Counted from the first letter of the stretch, positions 21,715-60,356 are shown. The stretch is 64,000 nt of DNA from Alphaproteobacteria bacterium (GCA_017615655.1 JAFZZS010000002.1:3114-67113); one strand, 5' to 3'. The notes: generated by a model from the sequence alone, not told the origin. Made by a program: numbers and translations.

Positions 21715-22548
21715 ATGGCAAAACAAAGAATCGGATATGATGAATATCAGGAAAAATTGGAACTGCAAAGACGGGCGGATGAACTAAAGCAAAAAAAAGA
21801 AGAACAAGAGAAAAAAAAGAAAGAGGCAGAAAAAGAAAAATTGCGCGTAGCCAAGGCACAGGAAAAACTGGAAAAAAAGAAAGAACGTATAGTTGCAAGT
21901 GGTATTCAACCTTTACGATATTCTTTTTTAAAGGGGGCATTGATCGGTCAAATGGTGGCTTTTGGACTTGGAAATTTGATGTTCGGAGTGGATCATGTGT
22001 TTAATGAGGACAATGGTCAGTATTACCCGCCAAGATATCATACTTACGGCGAAGCAATTAGAAATGCTTATGGTGCTGGTGATTGGAAAGAAGACCCCTA
22101 TAATGTCGCAATTGATACTTTTTTGAATTTGCTAATCACTTCTATAGTAATGTCGATTGTTGTGTCAGAAAATGCGAAAAGAACCAAAAAGGAGGCTAAG
22201 CAACTTCTCGGAAAAATAGAAGGTGTGCAATATCGTAGTACTTCGATTTGGGATCTTGAGCAGAAACTAGCGGATTTGAATGTAGATGGGAATAAGATAT
22301 TAGAGTCTCTTTCAGAAGTAGATAGAAGCTATTTTGAGAAGTTGGCGAAAGGCAATTGGAACGAGGCTGGTTATGAAAAATGTATAGCGATTATCCGGGG
22401 ATATTTGAAATCGCATAAAAAAGAGTATGAAGAAATCATTAAAGTTATTGATGAGGCGGTGTTGCCAGAAGACATTAAAAAGAAATATGGTAAAGGAAAA
22501 GTTATTTCTTTTGGTGCCGCCCAGGCGTTATCTGAACTTAAAAGGTAA
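21715..22548 (+). CDS. Hypothetical Lys/Glu-rich coiled-coil protein with two predicted TM helices (277 aa)
   Basis: N-terminal ~60 aa are K/E-rich (KQKKEEQEKKKKEAEKEKL...), followed by the hydrophobic segments ALIGQMVAFGLGNLMFGV and FLNLLITSIVMSIVV. RBS AAAGGAG lies upstream. Bracketed by terminators on both sides. Confidence 0.5.
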   Translation: MAKQRIGYDEYQEKLELQRRADELKQKKEEQEKKKKEAEKEKLRVAKAQEKLEKKKERIVASGIQPLRYSFLKGALIGQMVAFGLGNLMFGVDHVFNEDNGQYYPPRYHTYGEAIRNAYGAGDWKEDPYNVAIDTFLNLLITSIVMSIVVSENAKRTKKEAKQLLGKIEGVQYRSTSIWDLEQKLADLNVDGNKILESLSEVDRSYFEKLAKGNWNEAGYEKCIAIIRGYLKSHKKEYEEIIKVIDEAVLPEDIKKKYGKGKVISFGAAQALSELKR

Positions 22549-27821: not shown

Positions 27822-29006
27822 ATGGGCAAAGATAGATATATTTCTGTACGCAGTTCAGTAAGTGGTTTTTCCTTTGCGAATCTTGGTTTATTTACGGGAT
27901 TTGCAGATGGTATTTATAATGCTGTTTATTCACTTGTTATACTAGAAATATTTAAAAGTTCAGCAATTGTTGGTGTTTATGTCGCAATATATTCTATTTT
28001 TTGCATGATAGTCGCCCTGTTTGCTAATGAAATATTTCGGCAATTTTCCAAGACCAAGGTTTTTTATTTTGCATTATTGATGTTGGTGGTTTGCTATGCC
28101 ATGATGGGATTTTCGGTGATGCCTCGTACATTCATCGTTTTGGATTATACCAGTGGTTTTGCAATAACGTTAACGGCGCTTTTGATACCATTGTTTATGT
28201 CTGATTTTTCGGGTGTCGCCGGAATGGCACGTCTTAATTCACGTTATCATTTATGGACGAATATTGGGGCATTATTTGCACCAATGTTGGCGGTTGTTGT
28301 TGCAACAAGGTATGGTAACAGATCGGCTTTCTTTCTATCTTCGGCTATTTATTTGGCGGCCTGGACCTTTTTTAAATATTTTCGTCTTATCCAAGAAGAT
28401 AAACAAATCAAACCAATGAATCCGCGACGAACAGTTCGTGCGTTGATTCGTAATGCGATAGCTTTTTTTAGAACACCTGGAATGCTGCGCGCATACCTTA
28501 TAAATTTTGGTTTTTATTCATTACGTGCTATGCGGTATCTTTATGTTCCTATTGTTGTCATAGAAAATGGTTTTACCAAGGACACATTAGGGCTGGTTTT
28601 GACAATCGGTATTATACCATATTTGTTGCTGTCCGAGGCAATGGGGCACCTGGTTAGGCGATTCGGTAAGAAAATATGGCTGGTACTTGGCTTTGGGACT
28701 TTTGCGGCATTTTCAATGTGGGCTACGTTTGCAAGTGGGTTTCCTTTGCTTTCTATATTTGTTTTGTGGCAGATTTCTGGCGCATTTATGGAACCAGTGC
28801 ATGATTTGTTGTTCTTTGATAACACAAAGAAATCTCAGCAGACCAGGTTTTACGGTGTTTTTCGTACCAGTGCCAACTTGCCCAGTGTAATTGCCCCAAT
28901 AGTCGGTGCGGCGTGTATCACATTGTTTGGTGTAACATCGGCGGTATGGTTCGTAACAGCCGCCATAGGTGTCATATCTGTCTTGATTTTAATTGCTAAA
29001 AAGTAA
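27822..29006 (+). CDS. MFS transporter
   Basis: 12 predicted TM helices in a 6+6 arrangement; 394 aa. Confidence 0.65.
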   Translation: MGKDRYISVRSSVSGFSFANLGLFTGFADGIYNAVYSLVILEIFKSSAIVGVYVAIYSIFCMIVALFANEIFRQFSKTKVFYFALLMLVVCYAMMGFSVMPRTFIVLDYTSGFAITLTALLIPLFMSDFSGVAGMARLNSRYHLWTNIGALFAPMLAVVVATRYGNRSAFFLSSAIYLAAWTFFKYFRLIQEDKQIKPMNPRRTVRALIRNAIAFFRTPGMLRAYLINFGFYSLRAMRYLYVPIVVIENGFTKDTLGLVLTIGIIPYLLLSEAMGHLVRRFGKKIWLVLGFGTFAAFSMWATFASGFPLLSIFVLWQISGAFMEPVHDLLFFDNTKKSQQTRFYGVFRTSANLPSVIAPIVGAACITLFGVTSAVWFVTAAIGVISVLILIAKK

Positions 29007-29060
29007 TTGCAAGGTGCCTTTTTTCTTTGTATTATTTCGATATAAGAAAAGGGGTTATTT

Positions 29061-30131
29061 ATGGCTAAGAAAGAAGCAGTTGCCACGAGTGCAAAAAATC
29101 CTGCACTGGAATCAGCGTTGGCACAAATTCAAAAACAATTTGGTAAAGAAGCCATCATGAAAATGGGTGATGGGTCGCAACAGAATATCGAAGCAATATC
29201 TTCTGGCTCTTTGGGGTTAGATATTGCGCTTGGGATTGGTGGATATCCGCGCGGGCGAATTGTTGAGATATATGGTCCGGAAAGTTCTGGAAAAACCACA
29301 CTAGCATTACATGCAGTTGCCGAGGCACAAAAGAAAGGTGGCACGTGTGCGTACATAGATGCAGAAAATGCGTTGGATCCAAGTTATGCAAAAAAGTTAG
29401 GTGTCGATGTCGCAAACCTTATTATATCGCAACCCGATTCGGGTGAACAGGCACTTGAGATTGCTGATACTCTGATTAAATCTGGTGCAGTCGATGTCGT
29501 TGTAATCGATTCGGTTGCGGCTCTTGTTCCCAAGGCGGAATTAGAAGGTAATATTGGTGATAGTTTTGTCGGTACAACCGCCCGATTGATGAGCCAATCA
29601 CTTAAAAAATTAGCGGGCAGTGTATCACGCAGTAACACATTGCTTATATTTATCAATCAGATTCGTATGAAGATAGGTGTTATGTTTGGAAATCCTGAAA
29701 CGACATCTGGTGGAAATGCGTTAAAGTTTTATGCTTCGGTACGTTTAGATATCCGCAGGACAGGTGCAATCAAGGACAAGGAAAACGTTATCGGAAATGA
29801 AACACGTGTAAAAATTGTAAAGAATAAAGTTGCCCCACCTTTCCGTACGGTTGATTTTAAAATTATGTATGGCGAAGGAATTTCTCGTATAAGCGAAATC
29901 TTGGATATGGGTGTCAAATATGATTTCATCGACAAAGCAGGCAGTTTTTATTCGTATAATAACGAGCGCATCGGCCAGGGTGAAGCGAATGCACGTCAAT
30001 GGCTAAAAGATCATCCAGAAGCCCAAGCCGAGTTATTGGATAAGATAATGGCACGCGCGAATGGTATCGCCGAGGAAATGACAATTGGTTCACCAGATGA
30101 TGATGCGGGTGGGTCTGTTCAGGATGAATAA
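29061..30131 (+). CDS. recA: Recombinase RecA
   Basis: [33 protein letters not shown]alker A, L1/L2 loops; 356 aa. Confidence 0.95.
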
Positions 30132-30153
30132 ATATTAAACAAAAGGGGATGGC

Positions 30154-31059
30154 ATGAATCTGTCCAGAATATTTACTTTATCAAAAATAATTTTACGTGG
30201 ACATGTGTTTAACTGGTTTTGGCGGCCGCGTGGGGTCAGACGAAAGATTAGAAGTAATATTTTAGCGGACTTGTTGCCCAAATATTTCAAAAGATATTTA
30301 CCCGCAGCGGCAAGTATCCCGGAACGCAAAGTTATAAATGATGATGAAAACGAAAAAATCTTTACGCTTTGGCTTCAGGGTGAAGAAAATGCCCCTGATT
30401 TAATCAAAGCATGTTTTCGCAGTGTTCGTCGTCATTGTAAACAAGAATTGGTGGTATTGGATGAAAATACAATTTTTGATTATATAACCCTGCCAAAAGA
30501 AATTGTAGAAAAACGGCGTGCAGGAAAAATCAAACATGCGCATTTTGCAGATATATGTCGTGTGGAGTTACTTTATGAACACGGGGGTTTTTGGTTGGAT
30601 TCAACAGGGTTTGTGACAGCACCAATTCCTGATTGGATTACTAATGAAGACTTTTTTGTGTACATGGCAGGAAATAAAGTTGGCAGCCCATATAGTTTTA
30701 TGCAGAATTGTTTTATTCGTGCGCGTAAGGGGGCGTATTTGCTTGATGCATGGCGTGCGATGATATTAGATTTTTGGATGCACGAAGATCATAATCTTGA
30801 TTATTTTATGCATCAATTAATCTTTAAAACACTGGTTCAAAATGATCCGCGGGCTGAAAAATATTTTGCCAAGATGCCACATGTTGACCAAACACCAACG
30901 CATGCGCTTTGGTGGGCATATGGTGCCAAGCCATTTAATCAGGAAGTATTTGACAAGGTTACATCAGGTTCGTTCTTTCAAAAGACCACATATAACAGTC
31001 CATGGGTGAAAGATATCCAAGAAGGAACCTTTGCGGATGTTATGGTAAATAAAATGTAA
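30154..31059 (+). CDS. Caps_synth / Gly_transf_sug-type (GT32-like) glycosyltransferase
   Basis: IFTLWLQGEENAPDLI...HFADICRVELLYEHGGFWLDSTG matches the capsular-polysaccharide-synthesis (DXD sugar-binding) family consensus. Starts 22 nt after the recA stop with its own RBS. Confidence 0.6.
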   Translation: MNLSRIFTLSKIILRGHVFNWFWRPRGVRRKIRSNILADLLPKYFKRYLPAAASIPERKVINDDENEKIFTLWLQGEENAPDLIKACFRSVRRHCKQELVVLDENTIFDYITLPKEIVEKRRAGKIKHAHFADICRVELLYEHGGFWLDSTGFVTAPIPDWITNEDFFVYMAGNKVGSPYSFMQNCFIRARKGAYLLDAWRAMILDFWMHEDHNLDYFMHQLIFKTLVQNDPRAEKYFAKMPHVDQTPTHALWWAYGAKPFNQEVFDKVTSGSFFQKTTYNSPWVKDIQEGTFADVMVNKM

Positions 31060-31071
31060 AAAGTATATGCT

Positions 31072-31839
31072 ATGCCAAAGATATCAGTTATTGTTCCTGT
31101 GTATAACGCAGAAAAGTACTTGGTTCAATGCCTTGATAGTCTTAGATTACAAGAATTTGGTGATTTTGAAGTAATTTGTATAAATGATGGCAGTTTTGAT
31201 AATAGTGGTAAAATACTGACAGAATTTGCCGAATTAGATAAGCGTTTTATCATCATAAATAAAAAAAATGCAGGTGTATCTGCGGCGCGTAATGATGGAA
31301 TTAAAATTGCACGTGGTGAATATATTCATTTTATGGATGCAGATGATGTTATTGACAGTGAATATTATTCAAAAATGATACACTTTGCCGAAGGTAATGA
31401 TGTTATTTGTTCGGGTTTTATATCGAATAGTAAATATTCATCAAGCCTTACGTACAAAAGGAAGCATGTTCTGGTTGGAATTTTTGGTAAATTGCTTTGG
31501 TCACAAGCATTGGTAAAATCTTTTGTTTGGCGTTATTTATTTAAAACAGAATTTATAAAGAAAAATAAATTATTATTCGATACGTCGCTTGTTTCCCAAG
31601 AAGACGCAATATTTGTTCTGGATTCATTGGTAAAAGCGAATCGATTGGTGATAGTCCCGAACGTTAATTACCACTATATATTTAATGAGAATTCAGCGTT
31701 AAACAGTAAAGGCGAGGCGCACCGTGCCAAATTGAAAAAGCAATATAAATTTGGTAAACAATATAGAAAACAATATGCAAAAAATAATAATGTTATGTTG
31801 TTATGGTGGTTTAGAAAGTTATTAAAATTGTTTTTTTAA
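31072..31839 (+). CDS. Family 2 glycosyltransferase
   Basis: MPKISVIVPVYNAEKYLVQCLDSL...INDGSFDNS...DADD GT-A signature; 255 aa. Confidence 0.8.
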   Translation: MPKISVIVPVYNAEKYLVQCLDSLRLQEFGDFEVICINDGSFDNSGKILTEFAELDKRFIIINKKNAGVSAARNDGIKIARGEYIHFMDADDVIDSEYYSKMIHFAEGNDVICSGFISNSKYSSSLTYKRKHVLVGIFGKLLWSQALVKSFVWRYLFKTEFIKKNKLLFDTSLVSQEDAIFVLDSLVKANRLVIVPNVNYHYIFNENSALNSKGEAHRAKLKKQYKFGKQYRKQYAKNNNVMLLWWFRKLLKLFF

Positions 31840-31853
31840 CAAGGGAATAATAT

Positions 31854-32867
31854 ATGCCAAAGATATCTATGATTATACCAATGTATGGCGTAGAAAAATA
31901 CCTGCGCAGATGTTTAGACAGTGTAAGGAATCAAACGTTCACAGATTTTCAGGTTATATGTGTTGATGATGCATCGCCGGATAAATCTGGTGAAATCGCC
32001 GAAGAATATGCGGCAAAAGATAAACGTTTTATGGTTATACATAAAGAAAATGGCGGTTTGTCTGATGCGCGTAATGCGGGTATGCCATATGCCAAGGGTA
32101 AGTATATAATGTTTTTGGATAGTGATGATTTTATTCATCCGCAAACAATGGAAATCGCATATAATGCAGTCGAAAAAAACAAATCTGATATCGCATCTTT
32201 TGCATATGACAGATTTTACCGTCCACAGCTAATGGTACGACATATTTTGCATATGAATACAGATAATGTTATTCCATATGGAATAAAGAAAAGATACAAT
32301 CTGGATAAGATAAAAACCAGAACATCAAACGATATTTTTGAATATGCAACCGAACAATCCAGTAATTCACGAAATAAAAACAAGCATTGGCTGGTTAAAC
32401 ATTGTCAGGTTTGGAAAAATATTTATCGTCGCGATTTAATTGCCAATATTCCGTTTATCAAAGGTATTGTATTTGAAGATTTTCCATGGTGGTCTGCGGT
32501 GATGTTGAAAAAGCCCCGTATCACAGTTATAAATTTGCCACTTTATTATTATGTGCCAAATTTTGAGGGTATTGTTTTATCTGCAAAACAACTGCGTATA
32601 ATGACAAGTCTGTGTACGGGAATAAAGTACGCATACAAATTATACAGAGATGCCGCTAGTGATTATCAAATGAAAAAATGGCAAGAAAATTTTCTGTGGT
32701 TCTTTATCAGTAAAACATTTGGTAAATTGAAATACTTACAAACAGATGATGAAAAGGCAACGGCAAAAAAAGAATTTGTTGATATGAATAACATCGGTGT
32801 ATTTAATGATGTGCCAGATGAATGGTGGGCTGTACGCGAAAAAATATATGATTTTATAAATAAATAA
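31854..32867 (+). CDS. Family 2 glycosyltransferase (paralog of the upstream gene, longer C-terminus)
   Basis: MPKISMIIPMYGVEKYLRRCLDSV...VDDASPDKS...DSDD; 337 aa. Confidence 0.8.
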   Translation: MPKISMIIPMYGVEKYLRRCLDSVRNQTFTDFQVICVDDASPDKSGEIAEEYAAKDKRFMVIHKENGGLSDARNAGMPYAKGKYIMFLDSDDFIHPQTMEIAYNAVEKNKSDIASFAYDRFYRPQLMVRHILHMNTDNVIPYGIKKRYNLDKIKTRTSNDIFEYATEQSSNSRNKNKHWLVKHCQVWKNIYRRDLIANIPFIKGIVFEDFPWWSAVMLKKPRITVINLPLYYYVPNFEGIVLSAKQLRIMTSLCTGIKYAYKLYRDAASDYQMKKWQENFLWFFISKTFGKLKYLQTDDEKATAKKEFVDMNNIGVFNDVPDEWWAVREKIYDFINK

Positions 32868-32881
32868 TACCAGTATAAAAT

Positions 32882-33718
32882 TTATATCATTGATTTTTTA
32901 AATCGTGATGGGACTTTGACTACCCATTTGATACCCATCATTCCTGGTTTTCCAATAGCATATATTGGTCGAAATATGCGTTGCATTATCCGAGCAATTT
33001 TTATATATCGTTCTGTGTGCGCAGGTTTATTGGTTACTAAATTTATTGTCCCATTTCCCCGACGACGCAGGTGATTTACCCAATCTGCGCCACGAAGTTC
33101 TGCCTTGTGAAGTAACATTTCCATATCAACAGCACCAAAATGTAACAAGTATAAGTTTTCATCTATATGGAAATTATGCCGTTTAACATGATGAAAACCG
33201 CTGCCCCAGGTTGCTGGTTTAAAAAGTACCACTGGTTTTGTATACCGCGTAGAGAGCAAGGCGTAACCACGTTGACTTAACATAGGTTTATTTTTATCCA
33301 ATGCTTTTTCATAGTTCATATTTTGACCAATGTCTAGCCCCAGTCCAGACACTGTCGTTTTGTAATTGAGATTTGATAAATATTCAGCAAGAGTTTTTTT
33401 TATATTTGGATCAACAATTAAAAATTCATCAGAATCACACCCAATGACAATCTTATATTTTTTAAATAGTCTTTGCGCTAATTCTGAGATTTTTCCAATT
33501 CTGTATTTATCACCAGCGGCGCGCGACATATTAACATGTGGCAATTTTATTACATTCGCATTACCGGTATTTTTTGGTGTGTGTTGATCGGTTCCGTCCA
33601 AAATTATGTAAAGATTTTCTTTGCCTAGTTCACGACCATAATATTCAATCCAACGAGATAGAAAGAATTCATCATTTCGTGCCATTGTTATGGCGGCAAT
33701 AGATTTTGTTTTTGTCAT
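32882..33718 (-). CDS. Putative GT-A-fold glycosyltransferase (GT2_4/GT92-like), family uncertain
   Basis: N-terminal IAAITMARNDEFFLSRWIEYYG...LYIILDGTD...GCDSDEF (DxD-like); 278 aa. Confidence 0.45.
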   Translation of the reverse strand: MTKTKSIAAITMARNDEFFLSRWIEYYGRELGKENLYIILDGTDQHTPKNTGNANVIKLPHVNMSRAAGDKYRIGKISELAQRLFKKYKIVIGCDSDEFLIVDPNIKKTLAEYLSNLNYKTTVSGLGLDIGQNMNYEKALDKNKPMLSQRGYALLSTRYTKPVVLFKPATWGSGFHHVKRHNFHIDENLYLLHFGAVDMEMLLHKAELRGADWVNHLRRRGNGTINLVTNKPAHTERYIKIARIMQRIFRPIYAIGKPGMMGIKWVVKVPSRFKKSMI

Positions 33719-34566
33719 AGTTTCCCTGCCAGTAGTTTTTGTATTCCATATTTCATATTATGGTATGTCGCACTTAGCATATTGCGAGAAAGTGTTTTTT
33801 TGACATAATCTGTACCATATGTTTGTGACGCCGATTCAATAATTGCGTTACGCAGTTTGGTTGGGACATGTTCAAGTACATAATTTATTTGTCGACCCAA
33901 TCCACCGTCGTGCCGTGTAAAGGAAATCTTTTTTATAAAGGGGACTTTGGCATGATAGAGTTTTTTTACGTTGTTGTATATGCCACGACCTTTCACAACA
34001 TATATACACTTCCATGTTCCACCATGTGATATAACGTTGCTAGAAAACCCATGTTCATATAGATGGGTTATTATGCCCTTGTCATCTTGGTGTTTCACAT
34101 TGTTTATAAATTTATTAAACCAATCAGACATAAAGATTGTTTTGCGCATGCCAATAAACCATGATTGAATATGCGGATGTGTTTTCTTGGGATTTTCCAC
34201 CAAGCCAAATGCATCAGTATCAAATAATTCCATTTTTTTAAGGTATGGTTTAATATCAAACAGTGGACCGTATACACTATCGTTTACCATATACATAAAA
34301 TCATACTGGGTTAAATCAAGATGTTCTTTTGCCCATTTATATGCGCGTTTGTAAGAGCCAAAATCATATTCGCCATGACGTTCAGCAATCGCATTTAATA
34401 CATAAGGTATAAGTTTATCTAATTCGATTTTCGGAATATCAGAGTCCATACAAACGATTAAATCCCCAATTTTTGCCAAACAAGAAACATAATAAACCAG
34501 GGATGCGTCAACTTTGTTATTCGCATTATACCCAGCAAACAAAAATAACCTTTTATTCCTAGACAT
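33715..34566 (-). CDS. Polysaccharide biosynthesis protein (RgpF/WavE-like, uncertain)
   Basis: 283 aa, no TM segments. Overall similarity to rhamnan/LPS-core synthesis accessory proteins is weak and judged only from motif-level recall. 4-nt overlap with the downstream GT gene. Confidence 0.3.
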   Translation of the reverse strand: MSRNKRLFLFAGYNANNKVDASLVYYVSCLAKIGDLIVCMDSDIPKIELDKLIPYVLNAIAERHGEYDFGSYKRAYKWAKEHLDLTQYDFMYMVNDSVYGPLFDIKPYLKKMELFDTDAFGLVENPKKTHPHIQSWFIGMRKTIFMSDWFNKFINNVKHQDDKGIITHLYEHGFSSNVISHGGTWKCIYVVKGRGIYNNVKKLYHAKVPFIKKISFTRHDGGLGRQINYVLEHVPTKLRNAIIESASQTYGTDYVKKTLSRNMLSATYHNMKYGIQKLLAGKL

Positions 34567-34630
34567 GTATTTAGTCCTACTATATAATGATACTAGCTAA
34601 ATAAACCTTTTTCAATAAAGGATATTAAAT

Positions 34631-35560
34631 ATGTCAATTAATTATGACAATAAGAGAAAAGACATAACTTTTTGTACAATGTTGTTTAGAATGCCGACGC
34701 AGAATTTGGCGGCTATCAAGGGTGGAAACAGAAATTTTGAAGAATTTTATTTAGCGTCATTAAAAAGATTATGTGAAACTTTTAATCATGTATCGTTATG
34801 GTGTGATGCGGAAACAGCAAATTATTTGAATAAAGCTGGCTTCAAAAATAAAATACACATGAAAATTATGAAATTACAAGATTTACCCCATTGGAGTGAA
34901 CGTGAATCTTGCAGAAAAATTATGTACAAGATGAAAAAGTATGTTGGATATTTTTTGCATCATCGTTCACCAGAATTGTGGGTTGATTATTTGCCATTAA
35001 TGTGGGCAAAGCCGGCAATTATTGATTGGGCAGCCAAAAATAATAAATTTAAAAGTGATTATTTTATGTGGATTGATGCAGGAGCATTTAGTCCTAGGTA
35101 CGCAAATTCAAATTTATGGAATAATTGGAATGGTCATATTGTTGCCAGACCTAAACGTGTACGTATGACGATTGCGATAACATTGGGTAAATCGCGTCCT
35201 CATTTTGTCCCGCGTTTCGTGTACGATTTATGTAAATGGTTGTTTGTAAAACCAATTGAACCGGCAAATTCGCATAATTTAGCAAAACAAAATTTAAGGG
35301 ATATTGCAATGACCAATGCAGATTACGATGTTCCAGGTGGATGTTTTATGGTTCCTAAAAACAAAGCCCATGATTTTTATCAGGCATTTGAACGTGTTCG
35401 TAAAATAATGAAAAAGCATGATTTGTGCTGTGTCGATCAGGGAATTTTTCAAGCCATGATGAAATTTGATGTCGATGATTTGTTTGAATTGAAATATATC
35501 AAGGGATATAAGTCTTTGTATGCGTTGGTTGCAGGTAAAGATTATGATACCTTTGCATAA
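34631..35560 (+). CDS. HtrL/YibB-like LPS-biosynthesis-associated protein (uncertain)
   Basis: 309 aa, with a WIDAGAF segment reminiscent of HtrL_YibB-family proteins found in LPS core clusters. Confidence 0.3.
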   Translation: MSINYDNKRKDITFCTMLFRMPTQNLAAIKGGNRNFEEFYLASLKRLCETFNHVSLWCDAETANYLNKAGFKNKIHMKIMKLQDLPHWSERESCRKIMYKMKKYVGYFLHHRSPELWVDYLPLMWAKPAIIDWAAKNNKFKSDYFMWIDAGAFSPRYANSNLWNNWNGHIVARPKRVRMTIAITLGKSRPHFVPRFVYDLCKWLFVKPIEPANSHNLAKQNLRDIAMTNADYDVPGGCFMVPKNKAHDFYQAFERVRKIMKKHDLCCVDQGIFQAMMKFDVDDLFELKYIKGYKSLYALVAGKDYDTFA

Positions 35561-35575
35561 TTCTGATGTATAAGG

Positions 35576-35603
35576 AAAAAACCGCCGTATCGGCGGTTTT
35601 TTT
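35576..35603. terminator. Bidirectional rho-independent terminator between the HtrL-like gene (+) and typA (-)
   Basis: aaaaaccgccg-tat-cggcggttttttt. The typA stop codon lies within the T-tract. Confidence 0.8.
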
Positions 35604-37437
35604 ATAATTCTTCTTTGCCACGAGCAAGTTTTTTACGTTTACCGCTATCTAATTCTTTTTTACGCAGACGAATTGTTGCAGGGGTGACCTCAACTAGTTC
35701 ATCATCCTGAATATACGATAATGCTTCTTCAAGAGAGATTTTGCGCGGTGGTGCCAGAAATAATTTTTCATCTGCGGTAACACTGCGAACATTTGTTAAT
35801 TCTTTACCTTTAATCGGATTTACTTCAAGGTCGTTTTCTTTGCTATGTTCGCCAATAATCATCCCAGAATAAACCTCGGTTTGTGGTCCGACAAATAATA
35901 CGCCACGTGGTTCCAAATTATGTAAAGCATATGTTGCAGTCACACCCTTTTCCATGGATACCAAAACACCTGGACGATATTGGACAATTGGTCCGCGGTA
36001 TACATCGTATTTATCAAAGACGCGGTTCATAATGCCTGTACCACGTGTATCAGTTCTAAATTCAGACAAATACCCTATTAAACCACGTGATGGTGCAGAA
36101 AATACAATACGTGTTTTGCCACCACCAGATGCCTTCATTTCCGTAATTGTTGCCTTGCGTTTAGTCATTTTTTCAATTACAACGCCACTAAATTCATCAT
36201 CTACATCAACGACAACTTCTTCGATTGGTTCCAGTGTTTCACCATTTGGACCTGTTTGCATAACAACACGTGGACGACTGACACTAAGTTCAAATCCTTC
36301 GCGACGCATGGTTTCAATTAAAATACCCAATTGTAATTCGCCACGTCCAGATACCTCAAATGATTCTTTGTTTTCGCTTTGTGTAACCTTTAAGGCGATA
36401 TTCGTTTCGGCTTCTTTGAAGAGACGTTCACCAATCATACGTGATGTTAGTTTCTTGCCACTTTGTCCGGCCAACGGCGATGTGTTAACGAAAAATGTCA
36501 TGGTAAGTGTTGGCGGATCAATTGGCATTGCAGGTATTGGTTCAGTTACCGATGGATCACAAAGAGTGTCAGCAACAGTTGCCTTGGTAAATCCCGCAAC
36601 AACAACAATGTCTCCAGCAGATGCACTTTCGCGTGATATTTTTTCAATTCCGCGGTGTTCAATAATTTTTGTGATTTTGGCATTTTCGACAAACTCACCT
36701 TTCATATTTATTGCCTTGACTGACTGACCAACGCGGACAGTTCCTGATTCTATTTTACCTGTTAGAATTCTGCCAACATATGGGTCTGATTCCAATGTTG
36801 TGGCTAGCATGGTGAAAGGGGCATCCAATTGACAACGAGTGCCATTACAATCAGGTGCCGGGACATGGTCAACAATTAATTGGAATAATGGGGTTAAATC
36901 TTTATGTTCGTCATCCAGATTGCGTACCGCCCAACCGTCACGTCCAACAGCATAAAGATATGGAAAGTCTAGTTGTGCATCGTCTGCACCCAGTTTATCG
37001 AATAAATCAAATGTTTCTGATAAAACTTCATCTGGGCGTGCATCAGATCTGTCGACCTTGTTAATACATACGATGGGGCGTAACCCAAGTTTTAATGCTT
37101 TGGATAGTACAAACTTAGTTTGGGGCAGGGGACCTTCGGCACTGTCTACCAATAATACCACGCCATCAACCATGGATAGAATACGTTCTACCTCGCCACC
37201 AAAATCGGCGTGTCCCGGGGTATCCACAATATTAATTTTGTAATCATGCCACAGAACGGATGTTGGTTTGGCCGAGATGGTAATTCCGCGTTCGCGCTCG
37301 ATATCGCCACTGTCCATGACGCGATCTTCCACGCGTTCATTTTCACGGAAAGTGCCGGCCTGTTTCAACATATTATCAACCAAGGTTGTTTTACCGTGGT
37401 CAACGTGCGCGATAATTGCAATATTACGAATCTTCAT
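35602..37437 (-). CDS. typA: Translational GTPase TypA/BipA
   Basis: [24 protein letters not shown]-like domain order; 611 aa. Confidence 0.93.
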
Positions 37438-37563
37438 GTTTTAGCCCTTTTTTGCCCTAAGGGTATAGATTATACGATATTTTTTAAAATTCAACAAATT
37501 ATGAAACATTTTTATAAAAAATGGGTACTAATAAATGGTGGGTTACGTTTTGTTAAGGTAAAA

Positions 37564-37586
37564 GAAATCGCCCGACGGGCGATTTC
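37564..37586 (-). terminator. Probable rho-independent terminator downstream of serS
   Basis: gaaatcgccc-gac-gggcgatttc hairpin, short T-run on the minus strand. Confidence 0.55.
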
Positions 37587-37589
37587 TAT

Positions 37590-38886: not shown

Positions 38887-39792
38887 TTATTGCGCGTTTG
38901 TATTCAAGTAACTTATTGCGTCCATCGCTGCTGTACAGCCAGTTCCTACTGCTGTCGCAATTTGCATTTTTAGGTTTGAATGAACATCACCTGCAACGAA
39001 TACTCCAGCTGGTAATGCGTCAGGAGCGATACGTCCCAAATCATCGCGTCTGATGTCTTCGGTTAAATAATCTGTGTTTGCTTCGTGACCAATGGCAACG
39101 AATATTCCATCACAGACAATTTGTTGGTCGTCCAAAGTTGTCGCAATCAGTTCGCCTGTGTCCGAATTCGGTTTTGCAGATATTTTCTTTAATTCTGTAT
39201 TGAATATGCACTCTATATTTTTCTTTTCTTTGACACGGTCACGAATAACTGCTTCGGCACGTGTGAATGCAGATTTGCGGTAAACTATTTTCACAGTTTT
39301 TGCGATATCTGATAAATATAATGCGTCATTTAATGCGGTATTACCGCCACCAATCACTAATACCGTTTTCCCGCTATAGAAAAAACCGTCACATGTTGCA
39401 CAATATGATACACCGCGACCAAAAAACTCGCGTGCACCCTCGATTTCCAGTTTTCTTGGGGATGCCCCAGTTGCCAAAATTATTGAACGTGTTTGGTATT
39501 TTTCACCCTGGGTATCGGTTACGATAAAGGTGTTCTTTTCGCCATTTTCAATATGCGCGGCAGTTTTCATTTTGATTTTTGCACCAAATGATTCAGCTTG
39601 TTTTTTTATAAACTCTACAAGTTCAAAACCACTGCCATGCCATCCAGGATAGTTTTCCAGTGTTGGAATACTGGCGGTTTGACCACCAAGTGTGTCACCA
39701 CCCATAACAAGTGTGTTTTTATTTCCGCGACCGCAATAAATTGCAGCCGTCAATCCAGCTGGGCCGGAACCTAATATAATAACGTCATACAT
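38887..39792 (-). CDS. trxB: Thioredoxin-disulfide reductase
   Basis: YDVIILGSGPAGLTAAIY FAD site, CATC redox-active disulfide, GGGNTA NADPH site; 301 aa. Confidence 0.92.
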   Translation of the reverse strand: MYDVIILGSGPAGLTAAIYCGRGNKNTLVMGGDTLGGQTASIPTLENYPGWHGSGFELVEFIKKQAESFGAKIKMKTAAHIENGEKNTFIVTDTQGEKYQTRSIILATGASPRKLEIEGAREFFGRGVSYCATCDGFFYSGKTVLVIGGGNTALNDALYLSDIAKTVKIVYRKSAFTRAEAVIRDRVKEKKNIECIFNTELKKISAKPNSDTGELIATTLDDQQIVCDGIFVAIGHEANTDYLTEDIRRDDLGRIAPDALPAGVFVAGDVHSNLKMQIATAVGTGCTAAMDAISYLNTNAQ

Positions 39793-39853: not shown

Positions 39854-40348
39854 TCACTTGCCAAAATGCTTTTTTAGTGTTTGATATGCAGCGGATATCT
39901 TTGTAAATTCTTGGCCGCTGGATTCTGATGTGTGCGCGGTATCTGGATGGTATTTTTTTGCAAGCGCACGATACTTTGATCCAATTTCACGCCAAGACGC
40001 AGTAATTGGCAAATCTAATGTTTTAAATGCATTAATGATTGTCGAAGATAAGGATTTTTTCACCGGCATTTTGTCAAATGTGCTGCGCCCAGTGATAAAA
40101 TCATTTAAAAATTTTATATAATCTGCAGATTCTTGTTTAGAGCGTTTGTTGATTGGTGAACCAAAAGTTCTGGTTTCCCAATCTTCCTCAATTTCTTCGG
40201 GCGTCATATCGGCATAGAAGTTCCAGTTCTTATTATATTCTGCAGCGTGTTCTTGGCAAAAATACCAATATTCTTTTAATTCGCGTGTCTTAGGCGCCCG
40301 ACATGTACCAGCTTTGGTACATCCTTTTACTTCGCATTTTTTTATCAT
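39854..40348 (-). CDS. Zinc-ribbon protein with C-terminal J (DnaJ) domain
   Basis: N-terminal CEVKGC...C....C..H zinc-finger-like region; C-terminal YRALAKKYHPD J-domain signature; 164 aa. 4-nt overlap with the xerD stop. Confidence 0.6.
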   Translation of the reverse strand: MIKKCEVKGCTKAGTCRAPKTRELKEYWYFCQEHAAEYNKNWNFYADMTPEEIEEDWETRTFGSPINKRSKQESADYIKFLNDFITGRSTFDKMPVKKSLSSTIINAFKTLDLPITASWREIGSKYRALAKKYHPDTAHTSESSGQEFTKISAAYQTLKKHFGK

Positions 40349-41211
40349 TTATCAAATTCCTTGTTATTCGAAAGCGGATGATGTTGTTCGACAACCTGTT
40401 GCAATTTTTCTGGTAATACGTGAGTATATATTTGGGTCGTTGATATATCCTCGTGTCCAAGCATCATTTGGATTGCACGCAAGTTCGCACCATGTGATAA
40501 TAAGTGCGATGCAAATGAATGTCGTAACACGTGCGGTGTTACACGAGATGGGTCTATTCCTGAAAGTACTGCGCATTTTTTTAATAATTTGAAAAAACCG
40601 TCACGTGTTATATGTCCAGATGATGAATTTGATGGAAATACATATTTTGATTCATCATCACCGCGCAGATTAATCCATTTACCTAGTGCATTTACTGCTG
40701 CGTCGTACATTGGAACGATGCGTTCTTTGGCGCCCTTGCCATGAATCAGTAATCGGTCGCCCAGAATAGCGGTCATCGGCAGTTCACAAAGTTCCGATAC
40801 GCGTAATCCTGATGCATAGAGCAATTCTATCATTGCGCGCAGACGGACAGAATTGCGAAAATCACCGGCGGATGAGATTAATAATTCTATTTCGTCGACT
40901 GATAATAATTTTGGTAACGTTTTTGACCTTTTGGGCAGTTCTAAATTTGCTGCTGGGTTTTTGGTTATTATGTGTTCCAACATCAAGAATTTATAAAAAC
41001 TTCTAAGAGCACTTGCCTTACGTGCAATGGACGAGGCCTTGGCATCAAGCGTCGCGAAATAATTTTGAATATCTTGTTCAGTTGCTTTTTCTAAACCGCC
41101 AGAAATTGCAGAATCGGCATGTCGCAAATCATTTTCGTAACTTGCAAGTGTGTTTTTACTGCGTCCCTTCTCGGCGGACATAGCTTCTAAAAATATATCT
41201 ATGTGGTTCAT
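40345..41211 (-). CDS. xerD: Tyrosine recombinase XerD
   Basis: R...HxxR...Y catalytic residues (HVLRHSFASHLL, GHEDISTTQIYTHV). Start set at MNHIDIFLEA (ATG at 41209-41211). Confidence 0.85.
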   Translation of the reverse strand: MNHIDIFLEAMSAEKGRSKNTLASYENDLRHADSAISGGLEKATEQDIQNYFATLDAKASSIARKASALRSFYKFLMLEHIITKNPAANLELPKRSKTLPKLLSVDEIELLISSAGDFRNSVRLRAMIELLYASGLRVSELCELPMTAILGDRLLIHGKGAKERIVPMYDAAVNALGKWINLRGDDESKYVFPSNSSSGHITRDGFFKLLKKCAVLSGIDPSRVTPHVLRHSFASHLLSHGANLRAIQMMLGHEDISTTQIYTHVLPEKLQQVVEQHHPLSNNKEFDK

Positions 41212-41360
41212 TATTGATATAAAATAACTTCGGTTACATTTTGTGTTGGTGGAAAATATATTATCATCAAAACTAGCAAAATAATGATAAAGATCCACAT
41301 AATTATTTTATTTCTTCTAGAATTTCTCTTTTTTAATGGCATATATTTTTCCTTTAAAAA

Positions 41361-42419
41361 TTAAATTGTATCAAAACTTGCGATAAATACACCTGATGCA
41401 GCAATTATAATCAATGGTGGTGCAATTATCGCAAGCAATGTTGGTAATGTTCCATTGGAACCCAGTGCGGTAAATACATTCAACAGAAAGTATAACGCAA
41501 AACATGTTAATATCCCCAAACTAAACTTTGTTCCAAACGAATGATTTCGTCGTTGACGCGTCTGTGAAAATGCGATACCAAGTGTCGCCATCGCTATCAT
41601 AGTTAATGGCAGAAACAGTAAAGTCCAAAATTGAACCAGGTGCCCGCGGACAGAAACCCCTATGTTCGACATTTTCTGTATGAATTCTGGTAAATTCCAG
41701 AAAGATATTTGATCAGGTTGCAGGTATCTATCAAGCACGGTTTGTGGTGTTATAAGTGTTTTACCATTCCATTGTCCTGTTTTGATTTTTCCAGACGTGT
41801 CAGATACAGTTGCATTATTAGTCGCGAGTCCAGATTCTGAAAGGGTTATTTTGTTCGAGTCTATGCGTTGACGAAGCACAAAGTCAGAGTCTTGAATGTA
41901 TATAGTTGTATTATGAAAAATTAAGTTATCAGATTCTTTTGTCATATCTGTTGCAACAATTGTTATATGTCCGTCATTTGAAGATTCGTGTAACCATATT
42001 TTGCCATCAACTAGGTTAAGATGTTCTCGACTAATATTTTCTGATGTCAGGCTAACTGCATAAGGATTTATTACAGTAGTAGCAAATGCACCAATAATAA
42101 ACGCACCAATCAGAAATGGTCGACCAATCTGATATGGCGAAAGCCCAGCACCCGAGATAATAACCCCTTCGCTTGAACGAGTTAGATTATAATATGCGAC
42201 CAATGTTCCCATAAATACAGCAAGCGGTAAGAACAGAGGAACATATTCAATCAATCGTATCCATGCGTCATTAAGTGCGGCGATGACCGTGGGATGACTT
42301 GGCAAACGTTCCACGAAGGTTACTGCATATATAATTCCACATACAATAAGTAATACAAGCCCGACTCCCGAGAAAAATCGCCTGAACAAAAATCTGGATA
42401 AAATTCTACTTGATGCCAT
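41361..42419 (-). CDS. LptF/LptG-family LPS export permease (YjgP/YjgQ)
   Basis: Three N-terminal TM helices, a periplasmic beta-jellyroll region, C-terminal TM helices; 352 aa. Confidence 0.65.
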   Translation of the reverse strand: MASSRILSRFLFRRFFSGVGLVLLIVCGIIYAVTFVERLPSHPTVIAALNDAWIRLIEYVPLFLPLAVFMGTLVAYYNLTRSSEGVIISGAGLSPYQIGRPFLIGAFIIGAFATTVINPYAVSLTSENISREHLNLVDGKIWLHESSNDGHITIVATDMTKESDNLIFHNTTIYIQDSDFVLRQRIDSNKITLSESGLATNNATVSDTSGKIKTGQWNGKTLITPQTVLDRYLQPDQISFWNLPEFIQKMSNIGVSVRGHLVQFWTLLFLPLTMIAMATLGIAFSQTRQRRNHSFGTKFSLGILTCFALYFLLNVFTALGSNGTLPTLLAIIAPPLIIIAASGVFIASFDTI

Positions 42420-52159: not shown

Positions 52160-52185
52160 TAGGTTATTAAAAAGGAGTGTATAAA

Positions 52186-53376
52186 ATGAAAATGTATTTA
52201 CCAGGATTTGTTTTTGCAACAATGTTGGTTGCATCCATGCCGGCGATTGGTGCAACTGGTTATGGAATGAGTGGCAATTCAAATAATATGAATTATGCAC
52301 AGTATGAAACACGTTCTACAACGCGTACATATTCGAATACTGGAAATTATGGTGCCTATAACAATAGTAATTACGGGACAAGATATTATAATAATCAAGG
52401 TGCTAATCGTAATCAGATGTATCGTGGATACAATGGTGCATCAAGCACGCGTACTGTTACAACGAACAACCGCCAAACCGTACGCAGAAGTATGAAGCGT
52501 AAATACTATTTGGCGCATCCTTTCTTTCAACCAACCGAAGGTAAATTTGGTTCGATAACAGATTTGGCATATAATACCGCATCGTATAATTTTGATATTA
52601 CGCCGGCGTCGGGTGTTACGATGTCTGATACATCTGCAAAGTGGGATATGAAGCAGTATGCTGTCAAAGAAGATTTCAGTTTTGGAATCACTGACAGATT
52701 TGGTTTGTTGTTGATGGGTCGTTATGATACAACAAAATACAAATTTGATTGGTCTACTGCGCCAGATGACAAGATGGATGATCATGGGTTTAATATTTAT
52801 GGTGCTGGTGCACAGTGGCGTTTTGTTGATAATGAGAAATGGATTGGAACGCTATCTGCTTACTATGAGAGACAGCAAGATATTGCTAATGAATTCGTGT
52901 TGGATTTGAAGGCTGGTTATAAAGTTTCAAAATCGACCATATATGGACTGGCACGGGGTTGGTTGGTGAATTTCGATGAAGAAATGTATGGAAACGGCGT
53001 TGTCGGCTCAAATGAAAGTGGGTACACTGAATCTATATTCTTGGAATATGATGGCGATGCCGAAAGAACGTTTTTCTTTGAAGCTGGACTTGGTGTATTT
53101 AGTGTACTGGATGAAGATTGGACATTGAATGTCGAGGCTCTTGTTGGTAATTATGATTGGCATAATCAGGCATCCATCAAGGGGGCGATTGGTTGGCAAC
53201 CAAACGATTGGTTCGCTTTGAACTTGTATGTCAAAACATCATTCTTTGATAGTGCCGATGGTAAGAATTTAGATTTCTATGGCACCGAATCAGGAATATG
53301 GAAATACATGGGTGAAGCAAAATTAGATAAGTACAGAGAAATGTCTGTTGGTGGTCAGATAATATTCTATTTCTAA
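52186..53376 (+). CDS. Outer-membrane beta-barrel protein with N/Y/G/R-rich low-complexity N-terminal region
   Basis: Signal peptide (FVFATMLVASMPAIGA), about 80 aa of N/Y/G-rich sequence, alternating amphipathic strands, C-terminal aromatic ...IIFYF; 397 aa. Confidence 0.6.
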   Translation: MKMYLPGFVFATMLVASMPAIGATGYGMSGNSNNMNYAQYETRSTTRTYSNTGNYGAYNNSNYGTRYYNNQGANRNQMYRGYNGASSTRTVTTNNRQTVRRSMKRKYYLAHPFFQPTEGKFGSITDLAYNTASYNFDITPASGVTMSDTSAKWDMKQYAVKEDFSFGITDRFGLLLMGRYDTTKYKFDWSTAPDDKMDDHGFNIYGAGAQWRFVDNEKWIGTLSAYYERQQDIANEFVLDLKAGYKVSKSTIYGLARGWLVNFDEEMYGNGVVGSNESGYTESIFLEYDGDAERTFFFEAGLGVFSVLDEDWTLNVEALVGNYDWHNQASIKGAIGWQPNDWFALNLYVKTSFFDSADGKNLDFYGTESGIWKYMGEAKLDKYREMSVGGQIIFYF

Positions 53377-53426: not shown

Positions 53427-54152
53427 ATGATGAAAATGCGCAAAATTTTATCTCTTTGTATATTGTCTGTGTTATGCGGTGCTCCTGCGTATTCACTTGA
53501 TTTGTCACAAGATACATCTGATCCATTATTCTTGCAGGCACGTGGTGGGTTGTTATCCAAGACTGGACTGGATTATTTTGAAACTGGGTTAAGGGTAGGT
53601 CAGTCATTATCGTATGGCTTGGCAGACAAGTTTGTAATTGGAGGCAGTGTTCATTATCAACGTGATTTTGAACGTTCTGAAAACGGTTTCTCGAGTATAG
53701 ATTTAGGTGGCGTGTATCGTATAGGAACTGCGGCAGAAAATGCGCAACATATTATATATGATTTTCTAATTGGACTTAAATTTGGCGGGTCGCATCGCGT
53801 ACGTACCCCGGATTATGCTGATTCTGCGTATTATGTTGGGTTGCGTTTTGGTCGTCAGTACGAAGGTGTCACTTTTGCTGGTACAATAAAATCTACGTGG
53901 ATATTTGATGATGTGCCATTAGGTATGGCATTCATAGACTTTGTGCCAGAATTTTATTTTCGTGTGAATAATAATTGGCGTGTTGGTGGAAATGTTGCCT
54001 TGCGCAAGGCAACAAATTCGTATTATAACGAGGAATCTATTGGTCTAAATATTGTTCGTGAATATGGACGGACGCAGTACGCTGGGCATATAGACTACGC
54101 ATTCGAGGCCGAAGATATATCGGCTGGTGTTTCAGTTAATATATTATTTTAA
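53427..54152 (+). CDS. Outer-membrane beta-barrel protein (paralog of the upstream gene)
   Basis: Signal peptide (ILSLCILSVLCGAPAYS), C-terminal ...VNILF. The internal FSFGITDRFGLLLMGRYD / LSYGLADKFVIGGSVHYQ correspondence with the upstream OMP suggests paralogy. Confidence 0.55.
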   Translation: MMKMRKILSLCILSVLCGAPAYSLDLSQDTSDPLFLQARGGLLSKTGLDYFETGLRVGQSLSYGLADKFVIGGSVHYQRDFERSENGFSSIDLGGVYRIGTAAENAQHIIYDFLIGLKFGGSHRVRTPDYADSAYYVGLRFGRQYEGVTFAGTIKSTWIFDDVPLGMAFIDFVPEFYFRVNNNWRVGGNVALRKATNSYYNEESIGLNIVREYGRTQYAGHIDYAFEAEDISAGVSVNILF

Positions 54153-58208: not shown

Positions 58209-58712
58209 TTATTGGCGGCGATTTGATGCGATATTTGCCGCCATTTGACTAAGTCTGTCCGCGACAGCATTACCACCGTTGCCTGCAAGTGTTGAATGTA
58301 TAGGTAAGTATATTTTTTTCTTGGGATTTGGTAACCATATTGTTTCATTCCCAGATTGTTCGATTATGAATCTATCAAGGTTTTGTGATAACGGAAAAGT
58401 GTAGCACATAAACAAATTATCAAGATTTAATTGTCCGCCCCATATCAGCGGTACACGAAATCGTATTGATAGATTATCCGGAATATTTTGCCCTGTTAAT
58501 AACGCCATAAATTCATCGCGATTAAGGTTCATTAATGCCAGTTCTTGGACACAGTCAGATAGCGACTTCATAAAAGTATGACAAAGTTCTTTGTATTGTT
58601 GAAACCAATCTGGTGATACTCGAACATTATGAGGATTTATGGGCATGACCGGCATGTCCGGCATTTTCAGGTCTTTTAGGCGATTTTCAGCGTTTGCTTG
58701 TGTCCATTGCAT
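58209..58712 (-). CDS. Hypothetical protein (167 aa) in toxin-position upstream of SUKH-like gene
   Basis: No recognisable motifs. 12-nt gap to the downstream gene and 1-nt overlap with the upstream gene. Confidence 0.45.
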   Translation of the reverse strand: MQWTQANAENRLKDLKMPDMPVMPINPHNVRVSPDWFQQYKELCHTFMKSLSDCVQELALMNLNRDEFMALLTGQNIPDNLSIRFRVPLIWGGQLNLDNLFMCYTFPLSQNLDRFIIEQSGNETIWLPNPKKKIYLPIHSTLAGNGGNAVADRLSQMAANIASNRRQ

Positions 58713-59626: not shown

Positions 59627-59669
59627 TTTACTTAAATTATATCACATTTATGATAAAGTAGAAAGTGTT

Positions 59670-60356
59670 ATGATAAAAACAGATGCCATTTTTGATGTGA
59701 TAGATGAATTTTCGTGCATATGGGTTCCGACTAGTGTCGAAGCCCCCGATCTTGCAAAAATATCAAACATTGTTATTGTGCAGAATAAAGAATTTTTGTC
59801 ATTACCAATTGGGGCAATAGGTCGGGTATGGCCGTGGCTGGAACATAGTAAAGTAAAATTATTAACACGTCTGGAATTTGATTTTAAAAATGATACTACA
59901 CCAGATATGGCGATGTCTGAATTAGCAACGAAGACAACAGAAGCTTTTAGACATGGGGCGTCAGGGGCGCAAATTTTTGTTCACATTAATAATATTCCAG
60001 AATTTGTAAAAATGATTTTACCGTTGCGGGACGATTTGTTTTTTGAACGGTATCTTTCTGTGGCGATAAATATTGATGAAATTAAAAACGGTAATGTAAA
60101 AGACGTCTTGGAATTGCTTGCAAAAATCAAACCCGATTCTGTTTTAGTAATTGCAGATGGCGATTCGTTTGACCCGAAGTCTGATTTTGTAGGGCGAATT
60201 TTCGGTATGCTTGAAAATTGGGGATGGGACTTTGCATTACATATTATGTTCGGTGGCAATATGATGCGTGTAAGTCAGGTTTTACGTCTTGTACAAAGAA
60301 TGCAACCTAAATTAATATCTGATTTGCGGGTCTTTATCATTCCACCCCAAGAATAA
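59670..60356 (+). CDS. Hypothetical protein (228 aa), divergent from the 4-gene cassette
   Basis: ORF with reasonable codon usage and no recognisable family. 20-nt convergent overlap with the trmB 3' end. Confidence 0.4.
   Translation: MIKTDAIFDVIDEFSCIWVPTSVEAPDLAKISNIVIVQNKEFLSLPIGAIGRVWPWLEHSKVKLLTRLEFDFKNDTTPDMAMSELATKTTEAFRHGASGAQIFVHINNIPEFVKMILPLRDDLFFERYLSVAINIDEIKNGNVKDVLELLAKIKPDSVLVIADGDSFDPKSDFVGRIFGMLENWGWDFALHIMFGGNMMRVSQVLRLVQRMQPKLISDLRVFIIPPQE

Follow-up and report, generated by a model that had tools for sequence, protein, structure and literature searches.

Positions 30154-35560 of a 64,000-nucleotide stretch from an Alphaproteobacteria bacterium (GCA_017615655.1, JAFZZS010000002.1:3114-67113; the whole stretch is referred to here as the window) hold a block of six glycosyltransferase-type genes, G1 to G6, between recA and typA. 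This block is almost certainly an ancestral modular locus and not an island. It represents the allele carried by this strain of an ancient, modular glycosyltransferase locus, inherited vertically and maintained between recA and typA by a family-level clade of uncultured host-gut Alphaproteobacteria. The original prediction, made from the sequence of the window alone, had read the block as an island inserted between these two genes; this description is contradicted by the presence of the cluster at this site in 28/28 loci and by its native composition. Taken as one account, an ancestral modular locus that serves the assembly of a lipooligosaccharide (LOS)-type outer core is modestly favoured.

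The strongest evidence comes from the same chromosomal site in relatives. Most loci were obtained from a G4-alignment scan of Joint Genome Institute (JGI) metagenomes, which returned 253 relatives, and on each contig that reaches far enough the G4 orthologue is found between recA and typA. Scanning species-representative genomes with RecA added L004, a close relative among the matches listed (an uncultured Alphaproteobacteria metagenome-assembled genome, MAG; RecA 95%), and two further loci (L084 and L087) were found through the genomic context of G6 homologues. Both flanks are visible in 28 loci, namely the window, L004, L084, L087 and 24 of L088-L161; in the 27 related recA-to-typA loci, RecA is 90-97% identical and TypA 88-97%. 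Each of the 28 intervals contains five to eight glycosyltransferase-type genes. Clustering of their 177 ORFs (open reading frames) into families reveals a backbone in the order G1> G3>, followed by G4< G5< on the opposite strand, with G1, G3 and G4 each present in 28/28 loci and G5 in 25/28. No synteny is seen within 10 kb in relatives with RecA identity of 73% or below.

Diversity within the locus is generated by three variable slots, which give rise to 23 architectures among the 28 loci, and the strain-specific part is the choice of accessory cassettes only. The core genes G1 and G3 have orthologues at 58-81% and 54-76% identity respectively, both in all 28 loci. In slot A (between G1 and G3), the window, L096, L108 and L132 have a G2-type GT2, the orthologues being 57-66% identical. 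Slot B, located between G3 and G4 and vacant in the window, is elsewhere empty or occupied by a GT4, a Stealth hexose-1-phosphate transferase, a NUDIX protein or a G3 paralogue. Slot C (between G5 and typA) is likewise empty or contains G6, GT61, GT92, GT8, GT6, further GT2s or a G5 paralogue; G6 itself occurs in seven of the 28 loci at 53-81% identity, together with one shortened copy. The resulting gene orders range from recA-G1-G3-GT4-G4-G5-typA in L004, without G2 and G6, to G1 G3 G4 G5 G6 GT8 GT61 in L084 and G1 G3 GT4 G4 G5 G6 GT92 GT2 in L087. L087 also keeps the full neighbourhood of the window (MltA-SecB-MFS-recA, cluster, typA-SerS-TrxB-DnaJ-Xer-LptG-GreA-MutL, where MFS denotes a major facilitator superfamily transporter). 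The original prediction had proposed a synteny check and had named an ancestral cluster of native composition in relatives as the contrary outcome; such a cluster is what is found for the locus and its core, and in one relative (L132) the six genes of the window recur in unchanged order, joined by one extra GT2.

All families encoded at the locus are glycosyltransferase, Stealth or NUDIX proteins, the variable ones being GT4, GT61, GT92, GT8, GT6, GT2, Stealth and NUDIX. Across the 28 loci, these protein families have at most one hydrophobic segment each, and none of the loci encodes an initiating transferase, flippase, polymerase, ATP-binding cassette (ABC) exporter, chain-length regulator, ligase or sugar-nucleotide gene. 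The statement of the original prediction that the block lacks wzx/wzy, an ABC exporter, a chain-length regulator and sugar-nucleotide genes is therefore upheld, and extends to 28/28 loci.

Several peculiarities of individual loci were also observed. A member of the GT6 histo-blood-group family (PF03414, 4.6e-21) is the fifth ORF of the interval in L143, a Stealth transferase is encoded in six loci (L090, L108, L116, L135, L145 and L161) and a NUDIX protein in two (L090 and L133). These cassettes hint at phosphodiester-linked sugars, and possibly at host-like epitopes, in some lineages. L138 and L154 carry tandem G1 duplicates and no G5; in L154, a GT2 is also broken into two ORFs and G6 is cut to 200 amino acids (aa), both being apparent pseudogenes. 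The locus recurs in several SRA assemblies as well.

Composition at first sight suggests a different origin, in which an accessory island was horizontally acquired by this genome and placed between recA and typA. The guanine-plus-cytosine (GC) content of the block is lower than that of the rest of the window (0.346 vs 0.390, p = 4e-4) and that of G2 (0.309) is the lowest in the window; gene orientation is mixed, and the gene set is unlike that of L004, the closest species representative among the matches listed. However, it is the first and second codon positions, not the third, that account for the deficit, which thus reflects amino-acid content. GC at third codon positions (GC3) is 0.288 in the block vs 0.312 in the rest of the window (p = 0.06), and the synonymous codon fit of the block to the window background is at or above that of housekeeping genes. 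The GC and codon-usage comparison put forward in the original prediction hence divides, with the lower GC content agreeing with an island and the native GC3 and synonymous codon usage disagreeing with one. Across the 28 genomes, flank GC3 spans 0.24-0.65, and is tracked by the GC3 of both core (r = 0.94, p = 5e-14) and accessory (r = 0.90) glycosyltransferase genes; in L004, glycosyltransferase GC3 (0.47-0.55) is the same as in its flanks. The extremes of flank GC3, 0.24 in L138 and 0.65 in L141, mark a wide compositional radiation in one clade, although RecA is so highly conserved.

Family structure and mobility signals also argue against an island. The families of the two accessory genes are dense, graded within the clade and recur in the same slots: identities in the G2 family grade from 77% to 53% among Alphaproteobacteria MAG proteins, and the G6 family, made of uncultured Alphaproteobacteria proteins, shows a smooth identity gradient. 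Neither a tRNA gene nor an Rfam match at the gathering threshold is present in the 64-kb window, and no flanking direct or inverted repeats surround the block. No integrase or transposase was found other than a XerC/XerD-type recombinase gene (40345-41298), which lies 4.8 kb off, passes the NCBIfam XerC/XerD-type cut-off and is syntenic in relatives. With the same site occupied in every locus and a four-gene backbone common to them, insertion of an island in this genome is very improbable, and for the block as a whole the island reading is refuted. In a glycosyltransferase block, lower GC content and genes on both strands thus do not amount to evidence of recent acquisition.

Rates of divergence are broadly in keeping with this origin. 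The median pairwise p-distances of G1, G3 and G4 (0.29-0.32) compare with 0.22 for MltA, 0.30 for TrxB and 0.42 for the MFS gene among the flanks, G5 being the fastest-evolving core gene (0.51). For G4, distances are correlated with those of housekeeping genes (rho 0.44, p = 0.001). Two observations weigh against purely vertical inheritance, namely that accessory glycosyltransferase GC3 averages 0.07 under that of the host, a value that would also suit an island, and that the distances of G1, G3 and G5 show no significant correlation to housekeeping distances; the housekeeping genes among themselves correlate only at 0.17-0.75. Some exchange between lineages is therefore likely to have occurred atop vertical descent. 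An impression gained from three loci, that glycosyltransferase divergence is decoupled from that of housekeeping genes, fails over 28 loci, where G1, G3 and G4 fall within the flank range and only G5 is clearly fast.

The organization of the block and its immediate surroundings is given in Table 1. The block consists of six intact ORFs in the strand order + + + - - +, with no further room, and all ORFs and Pfam domains reproduce the gene limits and family calls of the original prediction. Gaps of 12 and 14 nucleotides (nt) separate G1 from G2 and G2 from G3, and G5 overlaps G4 by 4 nt, indicating that G4 and G5 form an operon. None of the six proteins contains a hydrophobic 19-residue segment, compared with nine in the MFS transporter, six in LptG and four in PAP2 as controls; a flippase, polymerase, ABC permease or ligase is therefore not encoded in the block. 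There is likewise no sugar-nucleotide gene among its six ORFs.

Table 1. Features of the recA-typA interval and its flanks (positions in the window)
Feature	Position	Strand	Description
Promoter-like site	29007-29035	+	Upstream of recA
recA	29061-30131	+	Pfam RecA 9.7e-140; left anchor of the locus
recA-G1 spacer	30132-30153	+	22 nt; Shine-Dalgarno AAAGGGG only, without hairpin or terminator-like site
G1	30154-31059	+	301 aa; Caps_synth/GT32-like GT-A; core gene
G2	31072-31839	+	255 aa; short WaaH-like GT2; accessory, slot A (G1-G3)
G3	31854-32867	+	337 aa; WaaH-like GT2; core gene
G4	32882-33718	-	278 aa; GT-A-type (Glyco_tranf_2_4); core gene
G5	33715-34566	-	283 aa; single-domain RgpF-family GT-A; core gene
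Promoter-like site for G6	34560-34588	+	11/12 consensus match
G5/G6 divergent spacer	34567-34630	.	64 nt; back-to-back promoter-like sites
Promoter-like site for G5-G4	34615-34587	-	10/12 consensus match
G6	34631-35560	+	309 aa; HtrL/YibB-family, GT-A-like fold; accessory, slot C (G5-typA)
Intrinsic terminator, bidirectional	35575-35603	.	Between convergent G6 and typA; 13-bp stem, 6 GC pairs, T runs on both sides
typA/bipA	35602-37437	-	Pfam GTP_EFTU + BipA_C; right anchor of the locus

Domain assignments rest on Pfam matches, which exceed the curated cut-offs for all six genes. G1 matches Caps_synth (PF05704, 8.9e-62) and also Gly_transf_sug (PF04488, a DXD-region family; 7.4e-6), while G2 and G3 both match Glycos_transf_2 (PF00535, 2.2e-35 and 5.7e-38 respectively). 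G4 matches Glyco_tranf_2_4 (PF13704, 6e-11), with a GCD-x-DEF motif that is invariant in the alignment of relatives. The match of G5 to RgpF (PF05045, 1.3e-19) is restricted to model positions 2-241 of 503, and that of G6 to HtrL_YibB (PF09612, 2.5e-6; 27.7 bits vs a gathering cut-off of 24.1) to the N-terminal half. A role for G5 as a full-length RgpF rhamnan synthesis protein was rejected, given that the model is half-covered and no rml or rgpCD-like gene is present at any of the 28 loci.

A PDB sequence search gave no match for G1, G4, G5 or G6, and structure models were therefore made for the two weakest calls, G5 and G6. The AlphaFold (AF2) model of G5 (predicted local distance difference test score, pLDDT, 94.3) adopts a GT-A fold, with the Aspergillus galactofuranosyltransferase GfsA as its best Foldseek match (8yrl, E 1.9e-6, template modelling score, TM, 0.51), followed by TarP/TarS and glycogenin. 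The AF2 model of G6 (pLDDT 93.3) matches GT-A enzymes only, remotely and with a TM of about 0.35, with XXYLT1 at the top (3.1e-5) and then the GT6 alpha3GalT, GTA and GTB. An invariant D231-Y-D233 provides the acidic D-Y-D motif of G6. Both proteins are thus modelled with confidence as GT-A folds, and all six are likely soluble or peripheral GT-A-type enzymes. Six glycosyltransferase-type genes is a fair description of the block, the call for G6 being predicted from its modelled fold. Solitary G6 homologues, 69% and 63% identical, were also observed near gyrA and rpmH in two contigs (L085 10001-10933 and L086 10001-10933), where they have no glycosyltransferase neighbours; the HtrL-like gene is therefore not always part of the recA-typA locus.

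Lipopolysaccharide (LPS) core decoration, one of the functions offered by the original prediction, is plausible for this set of enzymes, and by analogy with known systems the case for LOS outer-core assembly is finely balanced, leaning slightly towards acceptance. Since the enzymes are of soluble or peripheral GT-A type and the locus is devoid of initiation, export, polymerase and ligase genes, stepwise cytoplasmic assembly is most likely. The enzymes would add single sugars stepwise, from common nucleotide sugars, to an acceptor that is anchored by a lipid on the cytoplasmic side of the inner membrane and is most probably lipid A-inner core. The product would next follow the generic LPS route, with MsbA flipping it and the Lpt system exporting it. 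It is predicted to be a short, non-repeating outer core of LOS type, the structure of which would vary by lineage with the accessory transferases present. A gene for an LptG-like permease (41361-42419) lies 5.8 kb from the block and is syntenic in L087, indicating that LPS is made and exported.

Family resemblance provides further support. Among 18,950 NCBIfam models, G2 and G3 both match best to PRK10073 (4.3e-40 and 3.9e-38), which represents WaaH, the UDP-glucuronate:LPS HepIII glycosyltransferase. Escherichia coli WaaH aligns over nearly the full length with G2 (28% identity over 246 aa) and G3 (31% over 237 aa), the GT4 of slot B is similar to WaaB, and the GT8 cassette to WaaO/WaaJ. Phase variation was considered as a source of structural diversity and rejected: homopolymers in the block reach no more than A8/T8, and it contains neither G/C tracts of at least 6 nor simple sequence repeats of at least 5 copies. 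Variation is therefore by gene content only.

Other observations weigh against an LPS-core function. The PRK10073 scores of G2 (137.7 bits) and G3 (131.3 bits) fall far under the equivalog cut-off of 423, compared with 633 for E. coli WaaH, and the two proteins are therefore family relatives of WaaH and not orthologues. The alignments to E. coli proteins took in the Waa proteins only, and members of the GT2, GT4 and GT8 families act in O-antigen and capsule synthesis and in protein glycosylation as well. G6 resembles E. coli HtrL weakly (30% identity over 73 aa; TIGR02192 31 bits vs a cut-off of 265) and would at best be a distant HtrL_YibB member, and HtrL is itself a protein without known function. 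Within the 64-kb window, which is only part of the genome, waaA, heptosyltransferases and msbA are not seen, and the absence of WaaL, Wzx/Wzy and an ABC exporter applies to the loci and the window, not to the whole genome. Acceptor, donors, reaction order and surface exposure are what we infer, the acceptor from what the locus lacks together with family resemblance.

The same enzymes could alternatively form the glycosyltransferase module of a polymerized O-antigen, capsule or exopolysaccharide built on undecaprenyl phosphate, with initiation, flippase/polymerase or ABC exporter and sugar-nucleotide genes located elsewhere in the genome. Split polysaccharide loci occur in Alphaproteobacteria, and the window covers only 64 kb of the genome. 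Caps_synth, RgpF, GT2, GT4 and Stealth proteins are common in capsule, O-antigen and rhamnan clusters (for the role of RgpF, see PMC9574508). Against this, genes for export, polymerization, initiation, chain length and precursors are found in 0/28 loci, which would be unusual for a polymer cluster conserved so deep, and the other ORFs of the window contain no multi-pass membrane candidate beyond MFS, LptG and PAP2. Cryptic Wzy or WaaL proteins were sought among the unassigned ORFs of the window and discounted, none of these being a multi-pass membrane protein. If the lineage is Rs-D84, a genome of 0.75-1.0 Mb would also leave little room for a dispersed second pathway. Polymer synthesis is an unlikely alternative, albeit one to be taken seriously.

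A target other than LPS is less probable still. Soluble GT-A enzymes could use various acceptors, among them a surface protein (by general O-glycosylation or modification of an adhesin) or a diacylglycerol-type glycolipid, with the neighbouring MFS protein perhaps acting as a flippase. MFS glycolipid flippases, such as LtaA, do exist, and the MFS gene (27822-29006) adjoins recA upstream and evolves fastest of the flank genes. As a dedicated flippase, however, this candidate was dismissed: its similarity is generic, at the superfamily level, and a PDB sequence search returned no relative. In addition, recA stands between the MFS gene and the cluster, no oligosaccharyltransferase or protein-glycosylation marker is present at the locus, and the best specific similarities are to LPS-core enzymes. 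In nearly all related loci whose sequence extends far enough on that side, the MFS gene directly precedes recA.

Assembly of an LOS-type outer core therefore remains the preferred function, and consensus matches to promoters and terminators give some indication of how its genes may be expressed. These matches occur in total at the number expected from shuffled sequence, and only the terminator between G6 and typA is convincing; the two sites in the G5/G6 spacer are the best promoter-like matches of the region. The arrangement suggests three transcription units, recA-G1-G2-G3, G5-G4 and G6, in which G1-G3 are probably co-transcribed with recA. The recA-G1 gap is 30 nt or shorter in 11 of the 28 loci, including the window, and in these mostly measures about 21-23 nt with a Shine-Dalgarno sequence alone. 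In most other loci it is 50-65 nt long and contains a GC-rich hairpin, possibly an attenuator or terminator. SOS-coupled expression via recA was examined as well and not supported: no GTTC-N7-GTTC (alphaproteobacterial) box is present upstream, and the window-wide count (44 vs 36.6 expected) is at chance level.

The clade that carries the locus is related to Candidatus Enterousia of the order Rs-D84. Proteins identical to G2 and G5 are recorded at NCBI for an 'Alphaproteobacteria bacterium' MAG (locus tag J5742, 275-kb contig). A homologue of G2, 67% identical, is named Candidatus Enterousia merdequi, and Enterousia is placed in Alphaproteobacteria incertae sedis in the NCBI taxonomy; we infer that the organism of the window is a member of Rs-D84. 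Enterousia, assigned to Rs-D84, are farm-animal gut bacteria with genomes of 0.75-1.0 Mb that lack the tricarboxylic acid (TCA) cycle and respiratory chains (PMC12306168). No published description of the locus was found, and a literature search gave nothing tying Rs-D84 or Enterousia to it.

Elsewhere in the window, the claim that the block is the only accessory one among housekeeping genes holds in part. The window is mostly housekeeping in content, but seven of its ORFs have no Pfam or NCBIfam match (including 21715-22548, 52177-53376, 53427-54152, 58209-60356 and 62576-63331); the window is therefore not purely housekeeping, and the uniqueness of the block is not fully assertable. Two of these ORFs (52177-53376 and 53427-54152) have N-termini resembling signal peptides. 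A 670-aa ORF (55540-57552) contains both YbeY endoribonuclease and apolipoprotein N-acyltransferase (Lnt) domains, through either a gene fusion or the merger of two genes by the ORF rule. The spacer between typA and serS, free of ORFs in the window (37438-37589), holds one or two small ORFs without family match in relatives (L004 13549-14654, L084 10297-11394 and L087 14862-15404), forming a second small variable spot beside the cluster. The trxB homologue of L004 (16226-16742) is inverted relative to that of the window (38887-39792).

These findings document a modular surface-glycan locus that keeps a fixed position throughout an uncultured clade of gut Alphaproteobacteria. Their main value lies in correcting the island reading and recording a clade-wide architecture; the biochemistry stays inferred, and no long-standing question is opened. 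If the lineage is Rs-D84, the retention of five to eight transferase genes at one site, in at least 23 configurations, would make the surface oligosaccharide a principal axis of diversification. A bolder and rather improbable extension is that genome-reduced bacteria of the Rs-D84 or Candidatus Enterousia type keep a combinatorial surface-glycan 'barcode', coupled to recA physically and probably transcriptionally, with four invariant transferases and three cassette slots. These slots would draw on families more typical of eukaryotes (GT6, GT61, GT92 and GT32) and on Stealth sugar-phosphate transferases. Were the products to mimic or engage glycans of host or partner cells, specificity for the host or partner, as well as escape from phages or immunity, would be governed chiefly by this locus in an otherwise minimal genome. 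The locus also offers a practical typing marker for the group, in the manner of outer-core locus (OCL) typing in Acinetobacter.

Known systems resemble the recA-typA locus to different degrees. Clusters dependent on Wzx/Wzy or ABC transporters, such as galF-gnd in E. coli and rgp in streptococci, likewise combine a fixed site with variable content, lower GC and Caps_synth, RgpF, GT2 and GT4 proteins; however, the flippase and polymerase or ABC transporter, initiating transferase, chain-length regulator and nucleoside diphosphate (NDP)-sugar genes of these clusters have counterparts in 0/28 recA-typA loci. The E. coli waa (rfa) region and its satellites waaH (yibD) and htrL (yibB) provide relatives of individual components, namely the WaaH-like G2 and G3, the putative HtrL_YibB member G6, and the GT4 and GT8 cassettes that resemble WaaB and WaaO/WaaJ. 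In contrast to that region, the recA-typA locus encodes no GT9 heptosyltransferase, 3-deoxy-D-manno-octulosonic acid (Kdo) transferase, core kinase or WaaL ligase. The LOS loci of Campylobacter jejuni, Neisseria (lgt) and Haemophilus are functional analogues, in that they contain only glycosyltransferases, specify short strain-variable outer cores and differ in gene content, but they lean on phase variation through homopolymeric tracts, whereas the recA-typA block has neither such tracts nor sialic-acid genes.

The closest known analogue is the LOS outer-core locus of Acinetobacter baumannii, located between ilvE and aspS (OCL; Kenyon et al. 2014, PMC4172580). Both loci occupy a fixed site between two housekeeping genes (here recA and typA, in 28/28 loci), and both combine a conserved part with variable genes to yield many locus types. 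The OCL contains about five to seven glycosyltransferase genes and no wzx/wzy or exporter, and its repertoire overlaps that of the recA-typA loci in GT2, GT4, Caps_synth (GtrOC27) and HtrL_YibB (OCL5) proteins (PMC4172580). The two differ in phylum-level lineage, flanking genes and the proteins themselves; no polysaccharide deacetylase, acyltransferase or rml genes are seen at recA-typA loci, whereas GT61, GT92, GT6, RgpF-type and Stealth enzymes occur in addition in this clade. The products of the A. baumannii OCL have solved structures, whereas the recA-typA product is predicted here from its genes. The recA-typA locus is thus best viewed as a variable glycosyltransferase locus of LOS outer-core type, at a new chromosomal site and in a poorly known lineage.

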